A model generated the notes under the pieces. It searched no databases. It was not told the origin of the DNA and saw only the letters and a list, made by a program, of their open reading frames with translations. A program made the translations under genes and the position numbers. From Gammaproteobacteria bacterium (lineage in GTDB: Bacteria; Pseudomonadota; Gammaproteobacteria; UBA12402): DNA of 64,000 nucleotides. Positions 2,365-52,995 of the stretch are shown one piece after another (positions within the stretch are counted from its first letter, which is position 1; every line of letters begins with the position of its first letter). The stretch lies in NCBI GenBank assembly GCA_050123335.1, contig JASFHH010000003.1:6615-70614 (forward strand), given 5' to 3'.

Positions 2365-2931
2365 ATGGAGCCAATTATTGATCATGGGAGGATTGTGCTG
2401 GTGATAGAAGAAGTAGTAAAGACATTAGAATTTATTAGTAAAACTCATAACAGATTATATCAGTTTGTTTTATCTGCAGTTGTATTAAAATGTCAAATGA
2501 CAATAAAGGGGTTATCACGCGAGTTAGCTTCTCAATTACAGTTTAAAATCATTCCGGATCATAGTGCGGTTTTTTGTGTTAACAGGGATCGTAATTGTTT
2601 GATTGATCAGAATGGGCAAAAGATTACTGGTGATAGAACTAAGCAGGTTTTTGTCAGTCAGGAAGGAACGTGCGTGTTTCCTAATAAGTTTAATAATGGT
2701 TTGCAATATCCAAATGGTCAACCAGTAGATTTTGATAGTTTAGTGGGTCAGAAATTTTATCCTATGACTATCAAGGTGAATGTTCCTCATCAATTACATC
2801 CGGCTACAGCAGTCCGTCAGCAAATTTCTGCGTATATAAGTCGAACCGTATTTAATGATAATTTGAGATATCAATCATCACAAGATAAATCTAAGCCTGA
2901 GTCTGAGCAGAGGTTATCTCCGACGCAATAG
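2365..2931 (+). CDS. hypothetical protein
   Basis: 188-codon ORF. GTG and ATG are adjacent after AAGGTG. I recognise no domain. Confidence 0.35.
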   Translation: MEPIIDHGRIVLVIEEVVKTLEFISKTHNRLYQFVLSAVVLKCQMTIKGLSRELASQLQFKIIPDHSAVFCVNRDRNCLIDQNGQKITGDRTKQVFVSQEGTCVFPNKFNNGLQYPNGQPVDFDSLVGQKFYPMTIKVNVPHQLHPATAVRQQISAYISRTVFNDNLRYQSSQDKSKPESEQRLSPTQ

Positions 2932-5078: not shown

Positions 5079-5274
5079 AGAACCTGTCGCCTTCAAAATC
5101 GCCCGGCTTTGCCTTTTTTGCAATATCTGCGTTGTAGCATTTTTTGCGAATGCTCATTTATTGTATATAAACTCCGCTTCGCAAAAAATGCTACGCCTTG
5201 ATCTTGCAAAAAATGCTCGTCTGCACCTTTCCTGCAATTTTTTTCGTGCAAAACTTGTGTTAAGGAGGAACAAA

Positions 5275-7121: not shown

Positions 7122-7247
7122 GAAGATGCGAGATTTATGGGAAATTCTGATATTGAAGTTAAATTGAAACTCGCGATTTTACAAAAACAAACAGGTTGTA
7201 AAATCGCGAGTTCCAATTTGAACTGACAGTATAAATCTCGCATTTTC
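7122..7247. repeat. nested palindromic element, family D
   Basis: Outer inverted repeat GAAGATGCGAGATTTAT / ATAAATCTCGCATTTTC and inner inverted repeat AAACTCGCGATTTTACAA / TTGTAAAATCGCGAGTT. Related copies are at 961-1005 and 42745-43050. Confidence 0.55.
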
Positions 7248-16384: not shown

Positions 16385-16398
16385 AAAAAATATTTGGT

Positions 16399-16518
16399 GG
16401 CGATTATCAGAGATTTTGGGTGGCTTTTTTCGACGACTAGCTCCCATGGATGGAAGAGCGGGAGGCACATGGATGTGCCAGGGAGGAGAAAAAAGACACA
16501 CAAAAACTCATAATCGCC
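16399..16518. repeat. palindromic element family B (copy B1, inverted orientation) inside the pilus operon
   Basis: Core TTTTTTCGACGACTAGCTCCCATGGATGGAAGAGCGGGAGGCACATGGATGTGCCAGGGAGGAGAAAAAAG flanked by the outer inverted repeat GGCGATTAT... Sits between the PilP-like gene and the ATPase gene. Confidence 0.6.
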
Positions 16519-16555
16519 AGAAATAAAAAGTTTGTAAATTATAAGGTAAAAATTT

Positions 16556-19757: not shown

Positions 19758-19824
19758 GGGGCCGGGTCTTTACTTATTACAAGTGCCCTGTCAGTTGCTT
19801 TGTAATAAGTAAAGACCCGGCCCC
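19758..19824. repeat. palindromic element family A (copy A1) acting as a hairpin terminator after the major pilin gene
   Basis: GGGGCCGGGTCTTTACTTATTACAAGTGC-loop-GCTTTGTAATAAGTAAAGACCCGGCCCC. Starts 7 nt after the pilin stop and ends 4 nt before the next ATG. Confidence 0.65.
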
Positions 19825-22676: not shown

Positions 22677-22737
22677 GGGGCCGGGTCTTTACTTATTACA
22701 AGTGCGATAGCTTTGTAATTAGTAAAGACCCGGTCCC
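22677..22737. repeat. palindromic element family A (copy A2)
   Basis: GGGGCCGGGTCTTTACTTATTACAAGTGC...GTAATTAGTAAAGACCCGGTCCC, followed by the associated ATGTAAAGCTCACGACCCG segment. Confidence 0.65.
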
Positions 22738-23220: not shown

Positions 23221-23416
23221 CTCTTGTTTGCAGCAACACCGCCGCCCAGATACCAGGAATTATGTGCTTGTTGCTGTGATTTTTTTGGTAAGTATAAAGG
23301 GCCGCTTTGTCCACAGCCATTTAGTACTAACAAGAATGCAAAAATACTTCCGATAAATATTATTTGTTTTATGCTCTTTTTCATGCTGTAATTATCAAAT
23401 TAATTTTATGTGGCTT

Positions 23417-23523
23417 ATAAGGTTTTGGGTTGATTTTTTCTCCTCCCTGGTACGTCCATGTACCTCCCGCGTTTCCATCCATGGACGCTAGTCGTCGAAA
23501 AATTCAACCCAAAACCTTATAAT
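23417..23523. repeat. palindromic element family B (copy B2)
   Basis: Outer inverted repeat TTATAAGGTTTTGGGTTGA / TCAACCCAAAACCTTATAA around the core TTTTTTCTCCTCCCTGGTACGTCCATGTACCTCCCGCGTTTCCATCCATGGACGCTAGTCGTCGAAAAA. Confidence 0.65.
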
Positions 23524-23575
23524 AATACATGGTTGCAATATTCACGTAGTATAACCAAAAACAAAGGGTTTGTGT

Positions 23576-25986: not shown

Positions 25987-27279
25987 TTAGTATTTTTGAT
26001 AAGTATTTTTTGTGCGGGCTTTACAAATAACAGTATAAAAAAATCCATCCATATTATCTTGTCCTGGTAGGATTTGTTTGCCGTACTTAGTAGGCGCGCC
26101 CCATGAAGTATCGATTTTATTGATTTGAGCATTGGGAGTTTTAGCAAGGAAGTTGCTGATTACCTGGTCGTTTTCTTCCGGTAAAATCGAACAGGTTACA
26201 TAAACTAATAGTCCATTGGGTTTTAAAGTTGGCCAAATAGTTTGTAATATTTCTAATTGTTTGTGCGCGAGTTTCACTATGTCTTTTTCTTGTTTTAATA
26301 ATTTAATATCCGGATGACGGCGAATTACTCCAGTTGCAGAGCATGGAGCGTCAAGTAGAATACGGTCAAATGATTGTTGATCCCACCAGCTTTTTATTTG
26401 TGAGACATCTGCATGTAGAAGTTTAACTTTATTTTTTTGTGTGCGCATACGTTTTAAATTTTCTGTGATCATTTGCAAACGTTTTTTGTCATGATCAATG
26501 GCAATTAATTCTTTAATATTAGGTTCGGTTTCTAAAATATGCATGGTTTTGCTGCCGGGAGCGGCACATGCGTCTAAAATACGTTGGTTTGGTTTTAAAT
26601 CTAATAATTTTGCGGAGAATTGCGCGCCGCAATCTTGTACCGAAACTTCGCCTATAGCAAAGCCTGGTAGTTGTGATACAGGGCATGGTTCTTCCAAAGT
26701 AATGCATGATGCACAAACAGGATTTACGATAGCTTTTACTTGATGCAAATAATTTTTCGCAGAGATTTTTCGTAAATTTATTCGCAAACTCATTGGCGGG
26801 TGTTCATTGTTGGCAGCTAAAATTTTTTCCAAATCATTTGGATATGTCGATTTTATTTTTTCAATTAGCCATTGCGGATGGGCAAATTTAGCAATCGTGT
26901 TTTCATTAACAGCGCTAAGTACTGCGTCTTGTTGGCGCAAAAAATTACGTAAAACAGCATTAATTAAATTACATGCCCATGGTTTTTTTAGTTTGCGTGC
27001 GTTATCTACATTTTCATTAATAGCTGCATGCGTAGGTGTGCGCATATAAATAATTTCATATAATCCAGTTAAAATTAATACATAAATATCTAAGTCTTTA
27101 GATTTGAGTGGCTTGGTTAATAATTTTTTGGCAATGAAATCTAGTTGTAAATACCAGCGTGATATTCCATAACATAATTCCTGGACAAAACTTTCTGTAT
27201 TCGTGAGTGTTTTAGCAAAAGATATTTTGTCACGTAAAAATTTTATAATAATTTTGTTAGCGGTTAATCTAGGATTCAT
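25987..27279 (-). CDS. rsmB: 16S rRNA (cytosine967-C5)-methyltransferase RsmB
   Basis: AAPGSKTMHILE SAM-binding motif and DAPCSATGVIRRHPD catalytic Cys motif; lies downstream of fmt. Confidence 0.9.
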   Translation of the reverse strand: MNPRLTANKIIIKFLRDKISFAKTLTNTESFVQELCYGISRWYLQLDFIAKKLLTKPLKSKDLDIYVLILTGLYEIIYMRTPTHAAINENVDNARKLKKPWACNLINAVLRNFLRQQDAVLSAVNENTIAKFAHPQWLIEKIKSTYPNDLEKILAANNEHPPMSLRINLRKISAKNYLHQVKAIVNPVCASCITLEEPCPVSQLPGFAIGEVSVQDCGAQFSAKLLDLKPNQRILDACAAPGSKTMHILETEPNIKELIAIDHDKKRLQMITENLKRMRTQKNKVKLLHADVSQIKSWWDQQSFDRILLDAPCSATGVIRRHPDIKLLKQEKDIVKLAHKQLEILQTIWPTLKPNGLLVYVTCSILPEENDQVISNFLAKTPNAQINKIDTSWGAPTKYGKQILPGQDNMDGFFYTVICKARTKNTYQKY

Positions 27280-27299
27280 AATTTAATTTTGCTTAGGTA

Positions 27300-27410
27300 A
27301 TCATGATATTCTAGGTTGCTTTTTTTTCCTCCCTGGTACATCCATGTACCTCCCGCGCTTCCATCCATGGGCGCTAGTCGTCAAAAAAAGCAACCTAAAA
27401 TATCATTAAT
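27300..27410. repeat. palindromic element family B (copy B3)
   Basis: Core ...TTTTTTTTCCTCCCTGGTACATCCATGTACCTCCCGCGCTTCCATCCATGGGCGCTAGTCGTCAAAAAAAG with outer inverted repeat GGTTGC.../...GCAACC. Lies between rsmB and fmt. Confidence 0.65.
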
Positions 27411-28347
27411 TAAACTTCTTATGTTTTTCAAAAAAATCTAATTTGCTATTTAATATTTCAGCAATGGTTAATGCTTTCTTGCCGGGAAATTGCATTTTTA
27501 AAATGCGCAACATGCCATCGCCGGTTGCTACATCAATTCCTTTTTTATCTAATTTAACAATTTCACCTGGTTTTTTATCGCATGTTTCAGTTAATGGCGA
27601 TGCTTGCCAAATACGAATAATTTGGTCGCCAATTTGTGTATAAGAAATTGGCCATGGATTGAAAGCGCGAATTTCGCGATCTAATGTTATCGCAGATTTA
27701 TGCCAATCAATTTTGGCCTCTTCTTTAGTGATTTTTTTTGCGTAGCATGCTTTCTTTTCATTTTGTTTGGTTGGAGTAATTTCGTGTATTTTATCCAAAA
27801 CATTTAATAAGGCGTCAATGCCAAGTAACGCCAGTTCTTCTAGTAAACTTTTGGTGGTATCAGTTGGTTTAATTAAAAACTCTTTTTGCAAAAAAACCGG
27901 TCCAGTATCTAAGCCTTCATCCATTTGCATAATACTAACCCCGGTAATTTCATCACCAGCTAAAATTGCCCGTTGAATAGGAGATGCTCCACGCCATCTT
28001 GGCAATAAAGAAGGGTGAACATTAACACAACCGTAGTGGGGCAAAGATAAAATTTCTTTTGGAATCAACAAACCACAAGCGACATCAATAATAATATCAG
28101 CATGCAAATCTTTAATAGTTTTTTGTGCGGCAGCATCGCGTAAGGTTTTTGGTTGATAAATTGGAATTTTGTGAATTAAACTTAGTTGTTTAACTGGATT
28201 AATTTGTAGTTTGCGTCCACGACCAGCAGGTTTGTCTGGTTGAGTTATTACCGCACAGATGTCATATTTTGCGTTTAATAAACTTTGCAAAAATTTGGCG
28301 GCAAATTCTGGAGTGCCAGCAAAAATTATTTTTAAAGAATCAGGCAT
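27406..28347 (-). CDS. fmt: methionyl-tRNA formyltransferase
   Basis: LKIIFAGTPEFAAKFLQSL N-terminus and formyltransferase fold. Confidence 0.92.
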   Translation of the reverse strand: MPDSLKIIFAGTPEFAAKFLQSLLNAKYDICAVITQPDKPAGRGRKLQINPVKQLSLIHKIPIYQPKTLRDAAAQKTIKDLHADIIIDVACGLLIPKEILSLPHYGCVNVHPSLLPRWRGASPIQRAILAGDEITGVSIMQMDEGLDTGPVFLQKEFLIKPTDTTKSLLEELALLGIDALLNVLDKIHEITPTKQNEKKACYAKKITKEEAKIDWHKSAITLDREIRAFNPWPISYTQIGDQIIRIWQASPLTETCDKKPGEIVKLDKKGIDVATGDGMLRILKMQFPGKKALTIAEILNSKLDFFEKHKKFN

Positions 28348-28862: not shown

Positions 28863-28938
28863 AAATTATAATTATAGCGGAAAGAGTATATTTTTACATA
28901 CATTTTTATGCTTTATTCTGTTACACTGAATGTTAAGT

Positions 28939-29050
28939 TTTTAAGAGATTTTGGGTTGTTTTTTTCTCCTCCCTGGTACATCCATGTACCTCCCGCGTCT
29001 TCATCCATGGACGCTAGTCGTCGAAAAAACAACCCAAAATCTCTTAAAAT
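28939..29050. repeat. palindromic element family B (copy B4)
   Basis: Outer inverted repeat TTTTAAGAGATTTTGGGTTG / CAACCCAAAATCTCTTAAAA around the B core; lies upstream of def. Confidence 0.65.
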
Positions 29051-32446: not shown

Positions 32447-32537
32447 GTCGGGTCGCGAGCTTTACATAATTTTTATGGGGCCGGGTCTTTACTAATTACA
32501 AAGCTACCGCACTTGTAATTAGTAAAGACCCGGCCCC
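32447..32537. repeat. palindromic element family A (copy A3) with its associated segment
   Basis: GTCGGGTCGCGAGCTTTACAT followed by GGGGCCGGGTCTTTACTAATTACAAAGC...GTAATTAGTAAAGACCCGGCCCC. Ends at the CaCA antiporter stop on the minus strand. Confidence 0.65.
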
Positions 32538-32538
32538 A

Positions 32539-33561
32539 TTATATACATAAAATGATCAAATATGCGATATATGCAGCTAACAAGATGCTGCCTTTTGTTT
32601 TAGTGAGTACTTTTTTGTCTTTGCGGCCAAATGCAAAAAAGAACAATAGGACGGTGATGCCAAACATCATAGTAAAATCGATGAGCAGGTGTGGCGCTAC
32701 ATGGATCTGACAAATGATTGCAGGTAGGCCAATTACGGCAAGCAGATTAAAAATATTGGAGCCGATTACATTACCGATAATGATGTCGTATTCTTTTTTT
32801 CTGGCACAAGCCAGTGAGGTTGCCAGTTCTGGGAGGCTGGTGCCTAAAGCAACGATGGTTAAACCAATGATTAAGTCGCTAATATTAAATTGGTGCGCAA
32901 TATGTATCGCACTTTTTACAATCAAATTTGAGCTGATTGGAAGAAGGATTAAGCCAAATGTTATTAGCAAAATGGCTTTCTTAAGTGGTACTTTAGCTTC
33001 GATTTCTTTGCGGTATTCAGTTTCCAAGACGTCTTTGCGCAAAAATTTCTTTCTTCTTTTGCCTTCCTGAATTAGCCAGAATACTACCAAAATAGCTCCA
33101 ATCAGCAATAATATTCCATCGCCTCGGCCAAGCTTGCCGCTTAACATGAATGCGCCGACTAACAGCATAGAAATGAACAATAGCGGAAATTCTTTACGCA
33201 GGGTGGTAGATCGTACTCTTAATGGAACAATTAATGCGGTGATCCCTAAAACTAGGCCTATATTGGCTATGTTTGAACCCATCACATTACCAATTGCTAT
33301 ATTCGGATTACCATGTATTGCAGCCATTACTGAGATTACCATTTCAGGAATTGAAGTACCTAGAGCAATAATAGTTAGTCCAATCAAGCGTGGCGATAAG
33401 CCAAATTTTCTAGCTAAAGTCGCTGCGCCGGAAACCGCGCTATTAGCAGCCCAGGCCAACAAGAAAAATCCTGCTAGTAATAAAATCAATGATGTTAATA
33501 GCCCAAGCTGCATGATAAAAAACCTTGTATTAAGGGTTCGTTTTAATAAGGTGTCTGACAC
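32539..33561 (-). CDS. CaCA-family Na+/Ca2+ (K+-dependent-type) antiporter, YrbG-like
   Basis: Two alpha-repeat motifs: GTSIPEMVISVMAAIHG and GTSLPELATSLACARKKEYDIIIGNVIGSNIFNLL. Confidence 0.85.
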   Translation of the reverse strand: MSDTLLKRTLNTRFFIMQLGLLTSLILLLAGFFLLAWAANSAVSGAATLARKFGLSPRLIGLTIIALGTSIPEMVISVMAAIHGNPNIAIGNVMGSNIANIGLVLGITALIVPLRVRSTTLRKEFPLLFISMLLVGAFMLSGKLGRGDGILLLIGAILVVFWLIQEGKRRKKFLRKDVLETEYRKEIEAKVPLKKAILLITFGLILLPISSNLIVKSAIHIAHQFNISDLIIGLTIVALGTSLPELATSLACARKKEYDIIIGNVIGSNIFNLLAVIGLPAIICQIHVAPHLLIDFTMMFGITVLLFFFAFGRKDKKVLTKTKGSILLAAYIAYLIILCI

Positions 33562-33961: not shown

Positions 33962-36900
33962 TTATAGTTCTATCCACAAGGGAATTGCTGGGTAATACAA
34001 TCCACAAGATATTTTTTCAGAGTATAATTGCATCAGTAATTGTTGATAATTAGTTAATTGTTGCTGATGCTTTATTCTTTCTTGAGCGATAAATTTTTCG
34101 ATATTTTTTCCGCTGAAAGCTGTGGTTTTGTAATCGATAATCCAGCGTTTATTTTGATCAATAAAGGTGCGATCGATTCTGTAGTGTTTTAATTGATTGT
34201 TTTGTGTAGTAGATATTGCAAATTCATTGCGATGATCCTGGTGATTTTTTAAGATCCATTGCGCGCGCGGGTCAGTTAAAATATTTTTTAAGACGAGTTC
34301 AATTTGTTTTTTAGCATAGTCTAAATTATCAGATAATACACCAAGTTGAATCAGCATATTTTGCCAGTATGGCAAAGAATTTTGTATGCGTTTTTCTGGC
34401 CATTTATCGATGCCCTCAATTGATATTTGCTGCAAGATACGATGAATGACCGTACCAAGGTGAGTGTTGGTATTGTTTGGGGGTGCAAGTGACTTTGTTC
34501 CTTCGAATCTGTCATCCCGGACCCAGTCAGTTGATCCGGGATCCATGTTCCCAAATCTGTCATCCCGCGACCCAGCCTGAAGCCTGTCCTGCGGCGCAGC
34601 CAGTTGACCGGAGGAATCGCGGGATCCAGGTTGTTCGGCACGCACAATCCGTCTTAATTGAGATAAGGTTTTGTGTGCAGCATTAGTTTGTTGTCTTTCT
34701 TCTGTGCTTTTGAATTCTTCTTTAACTTGCGGCCAAATTAAATTTAAAAAACTTCCTTTTTTTGGTTCATTGTTCGGTCCTGCGGTACCAAATAAATGCA
34801 ACTGGTGTTTGGCGCGAGTCATGGCAACATAAAGTAATCGCTGAGTTTCAAAGTTATTTTTGCGTTTTTCGTGTGTTTCAAGATAATTATAAATTTTATC
34901 TTTTTGCTCTGCATAATTTTTTATTGGCGCTAAAATTAACTCATCGCCGAATTCTGCTCGAGGTTGATCGGTCCATAATAAAAGCTGTTTTTCTGTTTGC
35001 CGTGCCTGGCGATGCAAACCTGGTAAAATTACCGTGTCAAATTCAAGGCCTTTAGCTTTATGAATTGTCATAATTTGTAGGGTATCATCGTTGGTTGCGG
35101 CAGGAGAGGTAAATAATGTTTCAATTTTTTCTTCGAGTTGGGTGAAATTTTTAATATCACCACCGGCGTCGAAAGTTTCTAATAATTTAAAATAAGTTTT
35201 TGCGTCTTCGATATCAGAACTTTTATTTAAACAAGCGCCCCCATTTATTGATAACCAAGTGTCAAAGACAAAATTGCGCAAATTTTTACGGCCGCGATTT
35301 TGTAATGCCTGATCGAGCCGTTCACATAAAAATAATAAATTTTGTTGTGTATTTACATCAAGTTTTTGTAGGGTGTTTGGATCGTTAATACTTTGCCATA
35401 TGGTTTCGTGCTGATTGGCAATGCAATGTAAATCTTTTAAACTCAAGCCACACCATGGTGCGCGTAAGATTGCAAGCCAGGCAATTTTATCTGCAAAATT
35501 TAGTAATGCGCGAGTTAAAGCCAATAAATCCTGAATTATCGGGTTGGTATTTAGTTTATCGATCTCAATTGCCTGATAAGTTAAGTTACAGTTTTGTAGC
35601 GCAGGTAAAATGTCAGTTAAATGAGAACGTGATCTGACTAAGATGGCGATTTTTTGTTGTGTGTTTTGTTGCTTAATCGATTTAATTAATTTAACTATTT
35701 CATTAACATCATTTGATGTGTGTATTTTGACACAGGTATCAGGAGTGTTTTCGTGAAAACTTTTAGTTTGACTGTATTTTACTGCGCCGTCAGTTAGATT
35801 TTCTACTTGCGGGAAGATATCGGTAAAAACCTGATTAAACCAATTTATTAATTTTTTGTTGGAGCGAAAGTTTGTTGATAAAGTTATTGGGTTTAATTTA
35901 ATATTTCCAATTCCATATTGACGTGCGCGAATAAATAATCCGACGCGGGCTTCGCGAAAACGATAAATTGATTGCATCGGGTCGCCAACAATAAATAATG
36001 TGCGCCCATCATTTTCTTCCCAGCCGGCGGTTAGTAATTCTAATAATTCGATCTGGGAGATAGAAGTGTCTTGAAACTCATCTACCAGAATATGTTTGAT
36101 CTTATAGTCTAAAAATAATGCCAAGTCAGTTGGATCGTCGGTTGTGCCTAATACGTTTTTAGCTGCTTGCGCTACTTCAATAAAATCTATTTCGCCAATT
36201 TCCTGGAAAACTAATTTTAGAAACGCAGCAGCGCGTGGTAATAAAATTGTTAAAGATTCTAAAGTTTGCCATTGTTGTTCTGAATATTTAGTTGGTGGAA
36301 TAATTTTTGCTTCAGTTAATGCTTCGCGGAAATCATCATGCGCAGAAAGTTGCTGTAATAAATCCAGTACATGTTGTTTCATCGGTTTATCGTTTGCTGG
36401 AAAACCATTTCTCTTATCGATAGTTTTGCGCCAGTCGTTTTTATCGGTTAAAAATATTTTAGCAATGAATTGCCAATAATTTATTTCTTCTGTTGTGTTA
36501 TCCCGCGGCAAGCCTGTCCTGCGGCCCAGCCAGTTGACCGGAGGAACCGCGGGATCCATGTTTGTTTTTGCAAACTCAGCTAAAACTTTTATTTCCTGTG
36601 CCAAATTTTTTGGCAAGATATTATTTAATTTTTCCAGGCAATCATAAGAAATATTTCGCAGGCTTTGTTCTAAATCTTCACGTGAAATTTTTTGACCATG
36701 TACATGTGGTAACCATTGGTCACGTTTAGCCAACATTGCGGCAATTAGGTTTTGTGTTTTACTAAAATCATTGTCAAGATGTAGCAATAATTGTTTGATG
36801 TGGAAAGCGCATGCTTCATTAGAATAAATTTGCATCAATAATTCATATGCGGCTTTTAGATATAATGGTTTTGCATCATCAGTGATTTTGGTAATCGTCC

Positions 36901-52805: not shown

Positions 52806-52995
52806 TTGTCATCCCGCGACCCAGTTTGTTGATCGCGGGATCTAGGCTGTTTGGTAGTTTTCCTGGATACCGCGGGTGAGCCGGTGTTAGTTTAGGCAAA
52901 GCATGCTTTGCCCCGGCGAACGCGAGACATGGATGTCGAGCTGGCAAAATTACCATGGATGGTTGCTTGGAACAATCTAAGCCGCGGTATGACAA
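52806..52995. repeat. family-C palindromic element plus an adjoining composite palindromic region
   Basis: GTCATCCCGCGACCCAGTTTGTTGATCGCGGGATC, then TACCGCGGG...GCAAAGCATGCTTTGC...CCGCGGTA with CATGGATG motifs. The two small ORFs listed here translate repeat DNA. Confidence 0.55.

Follow-up and report, generated by a model that had tools for sequence, protein, structure and literature searches.

The 64,000-nucleotide stretch of gammaproteobacterial DNA analyzed here (the window; contig JASFHH010000003.1) contains five non-coding repeat units, each about 110-130 bp in length, that belong to one family with a common folded core. The sequences CCTCCCTGGTACATCCATGTACCTCCCGCG and CCATCCATGGACGCTAGTCGTCGAAAAA, when allowed three or fewer mismatches, each match four times in the window, versus 0.00 times expected in shuffled sequence. 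The fifth copy (39776-39886) is divergent and shares GGCACATCCATGTGCCTCCCG and the overall architecture with the other four. A covariance model built from the family (R1) recovers the five copies, and no further ones in the window, at E≤1. The repeat is thus real, and both the mismatch scan and the covariance model bear out an earlier reading of this DNA (the original prediction), which had placed five copies with a common core at these positions.

The copies, designated B1 to B5, are all found between genes; the strand given for each is the one on which the hairpin loops read AYGGAY. B1 (16396-16520, plus strand; subtype 1, R1 score 105.1 bits) is located in an operon of secretin, ATPase, platform and pilin genes, and its AYGGAY strand is sense to these flanking pilus or type II secretion system (T2SS)-type genes. 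Its neighbors are a T2SSE-type ATPase, whose start codon (16556) is 36 nt downstream of the 3' end of B1, and a 242-aa open reading frame (ORF). The predicted position inside the pilus operon and before the ATPase is therefore correct, while the other neighbor, which had been called PilP-like, has no Pfam hit. B2 (23415-23525, minus strand; subtype 1, R1 match at 23429-23508 on the minus strand, 100.5 bits) occupies the divergent spacer between a short minus-strand gene (start about 23386), whose orthologs in two related loci (L031 and L032) are called as PF13627 LptM_cons, and an Abhydrolase_2 gene (start about 23578). B3 (27298-27405, minus strand and sense to the genes; subtype 1, 107.8 bits) is intercistronic, with fmt (27406-28347) on one side and rsmB (25987-27279) on the other. 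B4 (28938-29050, minus strand; subtype 1, 97.2 bits) is 76 nt upstream of def in a divergent spacer shared with a 131-aa gene, and has an ortholog in L032 (9316-9395). B3 and B4 thus bracket def-fmt and not, as originally described, def-fmt-rsmB, since B3 falls between fmt and rsmB and B4 upstream of def. B5 (39776-39886, minus strand; subtype 2, 63.1 bits) is upstream of a PDDEXK_1 (AddB-like) gene. Given this intergenic or intercistronic siting, an effect of the copies on mRNA, as had been proposed, is plausible.

All five copies follow the same plan: a long closing stem (P1) leads to a three-way junction that carries two short hairpins (P2 and P3), and the inner end of P1 pairs a T run with an A run in every window copy. 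Either strand folds well beyond shuffled sequence, with z-scores of -6.4 to -13.3 for the five copies. The strand on which the core was originally quoted (minus in B1 and plus in B2-B5) is probably not the informative one. On the opposite strand, hereafter the G-strand (the other being the C-strand), both hairpin loops read AUGGAU and the center has the form UUUUUU-CGACGACUAG-(CGUCC AUGGAU GGAAACG)-CGGGA-(GGUAC AUGGAU GUACC)-AGGGAGGAG-AAAAAA, with P2 and P3 in parentheses. The two hairpins are short, Watson-Crick paired stems with a common apex and on one strand; the GGA triplets of their loops start 23 nt apart, and extra GGA triplets occur in the junction strands (CGGGAGG and AGGGAGGAG). In B2, for instance, the P1 arms (TTATAAGGTTTTGGGTTGATTTTTTC at 23415-23440 and GAAAAATTCAACCCAAAACCTTATAA at 23497-23522 in plus-strand coordinates) are 26 nt long and 96% complementary, and the minus strand contains P3 at 23449-23464 (GGUACGUCCAUGUACC, in reverse complement GGUACAUGGACGUACC; loop AUGGAC), which fits the CsrA-type pattern ACANGGANGU, the P2-P3 junction CGGGA at 23465-23469, and P2 at 23470-23487 (CGUCCAUGGAUGGAAACG, with the apex CAUGGAUG). 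B5 has a different P1 (ATTGAAGCTTGCTGATAGGTTTTAAGCC), and its P2 reads GACCGC..GCGGUC with the loop CUGGAUG. The outer inverted repeats, which had been described as perfect over 19-28 bp, are perfect in B4 only (26 nt, 100% complementary); they are near-perfect in B2 (above), B3 (24 nt, 96%) and B5 (30 nt, 97%), and degraded in B1 (34 nt, 71%).

The combination of a conserved core with variable, self-complementary arms, noted in the original prediction, extends beyond the window. Three sequences, ACAUGGAYGU, CGGGAGG and the P2 GGA, do not vary among 32 aligned copies with unrelated arms. The P3 loop is AUGGAU or AUGGAC in 32/32, and the P2 loop is mostly AUGGAU in subtype 1 (in a few copies ACGGAU or AGGGAU) and CUGGAU or UUGGAU in subtype 2. 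The structure of P1, P2 and P3 is also kept by evolution. In an alignment, fitted to the model, of 37 distinct copies drawn from the window, metagenomes and two sister genomes, standard pairs fill 97.1% of pair cells versus 71.8% in shuffles, and both partners have changed in 16 of the 22 pairs. Covariation scores 0.588 versus 0.143 in shuffles, a value that none of the shuffles reaches (0/500) and that drops to 0.093 or less when the partners are slid. All 12 modeled pairs of P1 covary, P3 alternates between U-A and C-G (20 versus 16 copies), and one position of P2 takes four pair types.

The census used an exact degenerate 21-mer from the core as a probe against a one-genome-per-species set, metagenomes and viral contigs. 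The probe occurs at 11 places in a single genome of the first set, the gammaproteobacterial metagenome-assembled genome (MAG) JASFHF01, and in 20 metagenome contigs; it has no match in the viral contigs, and the B4 unit has no blastn match in plasmids or phages. Since all related loci have a G+C content of 33-42% and the GroEL sequences of the one pair compared (L003 and L028) are 87% identical, the sampled family probably comes from one clade of low-GC gammaproteobacteria. The copies can be divided into several groups: subtype 1, which includes B1-B4 and most MAG copies; subtype 2, with a different P1 and P2, which includes B5, L006 and several metagenome copies; further variants with unrelated arms (L012, L019/L025, L022, L023 and L029); and subtype 3, found in L031, which escaped the 21-mer and scores only 21.8 bits with R1. 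The window copies are 80-82% identical to each other over 107 nt, and none are near-identical. No conserved neighboring gene accompanies the family; the shared neighbors only mirror synteny among related organisms.

The arms had been regarded as copy-specific, and insertion of the core into the loops of pre-existing terminator hairpins had been suggested. Our analysis does not support either view. When subtype-1 copies are compared with one another, the 30-nt stretches on either side of the core reach 58.6% and 57.4% identity, compared with 31.8% and 30.0% in the next 30 nt outward (the flanks), and B1-B4 and the sister-genome copies share an arm consensus of roughly GGCGATTATAAGAGGTTTTGGGTWGYTTTTTT. 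A core-less arm palindrome is found neither in the window nor in 212 kb of related loci (276 kb in total). L021 has a subtype-2 copy between two genes that overlap in L005 (GCGGTAATTATG), and the latter site has no palindrome; the comparison of orthologous loci that the original prediction had called for thus yields an empty site that lacks the outer stems as well, the outcome which that prediction had itself named as refuting it. Because the arms are homologous, core-less palindromes are absent and the empty site is palindrome-free, the whole unit (arms plus core) is the element.

This unit has been gained, lost and replaced over the divergence time of the compared genomes, and its arms travel along with it. 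The fmt-rsmB spacer is occupied by B3 in the window and by a repeat of another family in L031, and in L032 it is 27 nt of sequence with no palindrome. In the spacer upstream of def, B4 is present in the window and as an ortholog in L032, and L031 lacks the element and about 60 nt beside it. As Fmt of L031 is closer to that of the window (89% identity) than is Fmt of L032 (81%), the absence of B4 from L031 is most simply read as a deletion. The LptM_cons-Abhydrolase_2 spacer carries B2 in the window, a subtype-3 element in the opposite orientation in L031, and in L032 only a short hairpin (ACAGTTAT-TGGGTTCT-ATAACTGT), which resembles the subtype-1 arm and is explained equally well as a deletion remnant. 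Such a remnant is seen in L007, the source of the one extra arm-like family sequence (about 2465-2500, minus strand, ATGAGGTTTTGGGTATCTTTTTTCTCCTCAT). It sits about 100 nt from a full copy and keeps the subtype-1 5' arm and T-run but only six bases from the start of the core, after which the distal 3' arm follows directly; a deletion between two CCTC microhomologies seems to have produced it. The L021 element reaches into coding sequence, the outermost 8 nt of its 5' arm overlapping the final codons of the gene upstream. No target-site duplications or direct repeats were seen by eye at the element ends. The unit therefore resembles a miniature inverted-repeat transposable element (MITE) in the general sense, having no ORF, an intergenic location and a presence that is polymorphic at orthologous sites, but it differs from DDE-type MITEs in that the arms diverge by about 41% between copies, the center is conserved and target duplications are lacking.

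The spacer downstream of groEL could not be aligned between the window and L003 and offers no clean empty site. This position has a subtype-1 element in L003, a subtype-2 element in L028 and, in the window, a perfect inverted repeat of 17 nt at 5134-5194 (GTAGCATTTTTTGCGAA / TTCGCAAAAAATGCTAC) that encloses a 27-nt loop; the spacer looks like a recurrent landing or retention site. Several known classes of structured sequence were also considered and rejected. Intrinsic terminators do not fit, as no T-run follows the stems and three copies are in divergent promoter regions. Integron attC sites do not fit either, as the conserved part is central and not at the base of the stem, and there is no cassette context. 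The hammerhead core CUGAUGA...GAAA is, by eye, absent from the three-way junction.

The pairing within P1 is unusually clean. Symmetric scoring of all stems gives 773 Watson-Crick pairs, 12 G.U pairs, 3 A.C pairs on the G-strand (each equivalent to G.U on the other strand) and 13 transversion mismatches. The 12:3 asymmetry mildly favors folding of the G-strand (two-sided binomial p about 0.035, with some events shared by descent). By gapless extension, P1 is mostly 16-53 bp long, and three copies stop at 7-8 bp. Wobble pairs are thus few despite an arm difference of about 41% between copies. Independent point mutation under RNA-level selection is expected to leave many G.U intermediates, and quasi-palindrome template-switch mutation is established in Escherichia coli genetics. 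Since P1 is almost all Watson-Crick, a DNA-level process is indicated, and templated correction of one arm against the other may be the simpler account of the arm pattern. L019 and L025 differ by a compensated block with a change of length (TCAGG/CCTGA versus CTGT/ACAG), and the B4 ortholog pair by a compensated transversion (AAGAG/CTCTT versus ATGAG/CTCAT). The copying of flanking sequence that had been proposed is likewise not supported, although the L019/L025 changes fit templated copying of arm from arm.

At the gathering level, no Rfam family, known ribozymes included, matches the window. In E-value mode, the sole recurring structured-RNA family is TwoAYGGAY (RF01731), which always matches the G-strand (27.8 bits for B2, 24.3 for B5, 37.8 for L012 and 29.6 for L016). 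MicroRNA and leader models of hairpin shape give equal or higher scores on single copies, and were rejected because they match any long stem. TwoAYGGAY was described in 2010 (Weinberg et al., PMC2864571) and is multi-copy in Psychromonas ingrahamii, with at least five copies in the published alignment, where the inner part of P1 is A/U-rich. The original description fits the present elements feature for feature. The family belongs to Rfam clan CL00106, as does RsmY, and has been predicted from motif matches to be a CsrA-sequestering small RNA (Gardner and Eldai, PMC4333381); tandem G-A pairs in one of its stems are mentioned in the same paper. The two families are alike in having two hairpins with AYGGAY loops on one strand, which was confirmed for both loops here, a very long closing P1 with few mismatches, also confirmed, and gammaproteobacterial hosts with several copies per genome and no fixed gene neighborhood. 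They differ in that P2 has an AA bulge here, and the Rfam model was built from other taxa. MITE-like gain and loss, strand bias and above-neutral conservation, which we observe here, go unmentioned in the available part of the 2010 description (PMC2864571). By its resemblance, the core would be a lineage-specific variant of the TwoAYGGAY motif. In this respect the original prediction, which had named a match to a known annotated repeat with a described mechanism as a possible refutation, is half answered: the core resembles a known motif, but one without a described mechanism, and we found no report in the literature of a tested function since 2010.

The hairpins also resemble CsrA sites. The CsrA consensus from in vitro selection is RUACARGGAUGU, in which ACA and GGA are invariant and GGA lies in a hairpin loop (PMC4347634). 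P3 (GUACAUGGAUGU) agrees with it at 11/12 positions, and ACANGGANGT occurs seven times in the window versus 0.74 expected, five of the seven being the elements. As in CsrA-binding small RNAs, there are several GGA triplets (P3, the P2 apex CAUGGAUG, CGGGAGG and AGGGAGGAG), and their 23-nt spacing in the two loops is reportedly within the span that a CsrA dimer can bridge. CsrB, CsrC and RsmX/Y/Z thus resemble the elements in their several GGA triplets, the best of which are in short hairpin loops matching RUACARGGAUGU / CANGGANG, in the paired sites at a spacing bridgeable by a CsrA dimer, and in sharing a clan with TwoAYGGAY. They differ in being single-copy genes with GacA/UvrY/LetA-dependent promoters and intrinsic terminators, whereas the elements are many dispersed copies with a closing duplex of 25-55 bp and no recognizable promoter or terminator. 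Neither a GacA-type box beside any copy nor a terminator-like site at the copies was found.

The only perfect GacA/UvrY box (TGTAAGN6CTTACA) in the window, at 41814-41831 (TGTAAGATATAACTTACA), adjoins no element. It is about 20 nt upstream of a minus-strand gene (start about 41793) that, by eye, appears to encode a helix-turn-helix repressor. There is no GGA-rich RNA nearby, and we rejected the site as a GacA box; it is probably the operator of that repressor.

The orthologous B4 pair allows selection on the element to be assessed. Between B4 and its L032 ortholog, the core is identical at 54/58 positions (93%), the arms at 46/55 (84%) and the downstream spacer at 54/76 (71%), while the four-fold degenerate sites of def, fmt and rsmB, taken as a neutral yardstick, are 59.5% identical (n=247). 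The B4 core is conserved well above the neutral expectation. This apparent purifying selection has an alternative in concerted evolution among the copies. In the window, the five G-strands are all aimed at the start of the adjacent gene, which is about 20-80 nt away in four copies and uncertain in position in the case of B5; this orientation is informative for B1 and B3 only, the other three copies being in divergent spacers. An outward promoter-like pair, TCGAAA-17/18-TATAAT, occurs on the plus strand at 23495-23523 (B2), 27378-27406 (B3) and 29021-29050 (B4). It combines the conserved junction GTCGTCGAAAAA with a TATAAT-like part of the distal arm, points at the gene on the plus side, and is clearest on the C-strand of B2 (TCGAAA-17-TATAAT) and weaker in B3 and B4. 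No conclusion about a promoter of the element's own is drawn from these pairs, given that promoter-like hexamers are not enriched overall.

Taken together, these features suggest a MITE/REPIN-like repeat whose center is a TwoAYGGAY-type, CsrA-binding RNA module held by a long duplex, an explanation that we place first among those considered, though only tentatively. In such a scheme, the G-strand would be transcribed by read-through or from a local promoter, and its two GGA loops would bind both RNA-binding faces of one CsrA/RsmA dimer. Each copy would then be a small CsrA decoy or would place the neighboring gene under CsrA control. The long P1 duplex would clamp the module and, whichever strand is transcribed, would offer a site for RNase III-type processing. 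The arms would stay complementary through arm-against-arm correction at the DNA level (quasi-palindrome formation, template switching), through selection for pairing, or through both.

Several observations weigh against this scheme. All TwoAYGGAY scores are 24-38 bits, below the Rfam gathering cut-off of 43, and the junctions differ (CGACGACUAG, CGGGA and AGGGAGGAG here, versus GCAAG, CUAAG and UGGUGCGU in Psychromonas). csrA was not found in the 276 kb of window and loci, which are a small part of each genome, and the literature found reports no tested CsrA binding by TwoAYGGAY. A P1 that is 97% Watson-Crick and 1.5% G.U is odd for a helix under RNA-level selection alone. Promoter-like hexamers near the copies number 56, compared with 58.1 in shuffles. 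Between co-directional neighbors, the G-strand is sense in three cases and antisense in eight (three of the assignments being made by hand from gene tables). When GC skew is taken over 5 kb on either side, the G-strand coincides with the strand that is locally C-rich in 28/37 copies (p=0.0026) and in 21/28 copies with clear skew (p=0.0125). The C-rich strand is the minority coding strand, so read-through transcripts would mostly carry the other strand of the element, and the bias counts against a simple cis-acting model in the 5' untranslated region. The strand bias exists, and it may follow either replication or transcription: after skew was split into replication and coding parts, the ratio is 13 versus 7 (p=0.26; 20 loci with genes on both strands and clear replication skew). 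A bias driven by replication would be expected of single-strand transposition, while one driven by transcription could reflect selection against inserts rich in GGA or Shine-Dalgarno-like sequence in mRNAs.

The principal rival is a DNA-level element that moves as single-stranded DNA, its hairpins being bound by a trans-acting HUH/Y1-type enzyme (as in IS200/IS605, PATE or RAYT-REPIN systems) or another structure-specific recombinase and its GGA likeness being coincidental. Although this is the strongest of the alternatives, we consider it somewhat unlikely. It would account for the many copies, whose presence varies between close relatives, for the differing subtypes in opposite orientations at one spacer in the window and L031, for the truncated remnants and for the lack of target-site duplications noted by eye. 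Two same-strand hairpins with a common apex would suit it, as would arms of nearly pure Watson-Crick pairing whose indels are compensated and an orientation biased with respect to local GC skew (28/37, p=0.003); IS200/IS605 elements are reported to target the lagging-strand template. However, that bias drops to 13 versus 7 (p=0.26) once coding-strand composition is removed, and the wobble asymmetry favors a strand that is mostly off the lagging-strand template. No Y1/HUH ORF was found in the window or loci, which is a weak test: approximate queries for IS200 TnpA and an E. coli REP-associated tyrosine transposase (RAYT) gave nothing better than E=0.04 in blastp against the ORFs of the window and L001-L030, small parts of the genomes. 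The window copies, at 80-82% identity over 107 nt, include no near-identical pair, one orthologous copy has been retained across about 19% Fmt divergence with a core that is 93% conserved, and viral contigs, plasmids and phages lack the pattern. This rival and the RNA-module reading are compatible, since a mobile unit can carry a functional RNA, by analogy with the QMITEs of Coxiella. Lower in probability is a structural repeat of the REP (repetitive extragenic palindromic) or ERIC (enterobacterial repetitive intergenic consensus) type without a specific partner, whose stable hairpin would alter mRNA decay or processing (through a block to 3' exonucleases or through RNase III) or DNA topology. 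The intergenic or intercistronic positions, the very stable fold on either strand (z of -6 to -13), the lack of an orientation preference toward neighboring gene starts and the several other palindromic repeat families in the same genome would all be in keeping with it. Stability alone, however, does not need the GGA loops, CGGGAGG and ACAUGGAYGU that are invariant across subtypes with unrelated arms, nor a core that exceeds the arms in the B4 ortholog pair (93% versus 84%); these invariant loops and junctions, together with the higher conservation of the core, point to sequence-specific recognition.

Far less probable than any of these is the hairpin-insertion model of the original prediction, in which a core of about 60 nt entered the loops of locus-specific terminator hairpins and the arms are host sequence. 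One would then expect the same arms, directly joined (e.g. ...TTTTTTAAAAAA...), at orthologous sites of close strains. Arms that vary between copies and are wholly different between subtypes would agree with this model, as would the short hairpin at the B2-orthologous spacer of L032 and the 5' arm of L021, whose outer 8 nt lie inside the last codons of a gene. But arms within a subtype are homologous, the window and related loci have no core-less arm palindrome, the L005 empty site is palindrome-free, and the L032 hairpin may equally be a deletion remnant. Moreover, three of the window copies are in divergent promoter regions and two are between co-directional operon genes, none being at a terminator, and no T-run follows the stems.

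Among described mobile repeats, REPINs and the REP-RAYT system, and the palindrome-associated transposable elements (PATEs) of IS200/IS605, are also intergenic non-coding hairpin units of about 100 nt without target duplication, in which compensatory changes preserve the hairpin and single-strand intermediates are suspected. REPINs, however, conserve the arms (REPs with a GTAG motif) and vary the loop, whereas in the present family the center is conserved and the arms vary, and a search of the ORFs from the window and L001-L030 turned up neither a RAYT nor a TnpA gene. QMITE1 and QMITE2 of Coxiella burnetii are MITEs that give rise to small RNAs and whose conservation among strains was taken to suggest an adaptive role (Wachter et al. 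2018, PMC5896051). The parallel lies in MITE families in a low-GC intracellular gammaproteobacterium. The QMITEs differ in their length of 150-400 bp, their direct repeats and, in QMITE2, a GTAG REP targeted by IS1111, and a core with two GGA hairpins does not figure in the abstract; the comparison is by description only.

The same DNA contains other repeats. A member of another family at 52808-52993 has terminal inverted repeats GTCATCCCGCG / CGCGGTATGAC and, on the plus strand, the GGA hairpins GACAUGGAUGUC (near 52925) and ACCAUGGAUGGU (near 52952), which are 27 nt apart; the hairpin near 52925 is similar to hairpin A (GCGAGACCAUGGAUGGUCGAGC) in the subtype-3 element of L031, and the repeat has no Rfam match and no long P1. 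The GTCATNCCGCGG...CCGCGGNATGAC family occurs at 34559-34632, 36497-36562, 38645-38682 and 60586-60623 in the window and at 10960-11070 in L031, in a short 38-nt form and in longer forms (12 pattern matches versus 4 expected); one of its members is the repeat that occupies the fmt-rsmB spacer of L031, the position of B3 in the window. A palindrome family, presumably the 'family A' of the original prediction, is found at 19758-19824, 22677-22737, 32475-32539 and 59575-59647, and at about 2040-2100 in L003; its arms, GGGGCCGGGTCTTTACTTATTACAA / TTGTAATAAGTAAAGACCCGGCCCC, are 25-28 nt long and 92-100% complementary and enclose loops of 11-17 nt. A small palindrome family at 7161-7219 and 42783-43010, with arms ...GATTTTACAA / TTGTAAAATC... 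of 24-45 nt, shares a TTACAA/TTGTAA apex with the GGGGCC family. In addition, there is a 31-nt inverted repeat at 62022-62091 (TTAAGGTGTCAAGTCTAGACTTGAGACTTGA / TCAAGTCTCAAGTCTAGACTTGACACCTAAA, 97% complementary, 8-nt loop) and, at 43042-44382, a tandem array in which seven units, each about 171 bp, show 63-93% identity to the reference unit. The array is inside a long minus-strand open frame (43121-44764), which suggests a repeat-domain protein.

The motif class was already known and its link to CsrA had been proposed. Our analysis adds a lineage variant that scores below the Rfam threshold, with different junctions and several subtypes, and with evidence for gain and loss of the whole unit, conservation of an ortholog above neutral expectation, nearly wobble-free co-evolving arms and a strand bias. 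A bolder extension, which we regard as improbable, is that the element is a self-spreading carrier of CsrA decoys: in a clade of uncultured low-GC gammaproteobacteria, dozens of modules with two GGA hairpins, scattered over the intergenic DNA, would form a distributed CsrA sponge or regulon tunable by copy number, with each arm serving to regenerate the other through fold-back or template-switch copying. If so, arm regeneration by copying would be a mode of propagation or maintenance undescribed for bacterial repeats, and would account for the scarcity of wobble pairs as well as for the compensated indels. In this clade TwoAYGGAY occurs in a compact form with many copies, which makes the question of CsrA binding directly testable, and with it a second question, namely how arms of 25-55 bp can drift in sequence and yet stay near-perfectly complementary. 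Should the connection to CsrA prove right, the family would be an example of a mobile repeat that spreads sites for a global post-transcriptional regulator.

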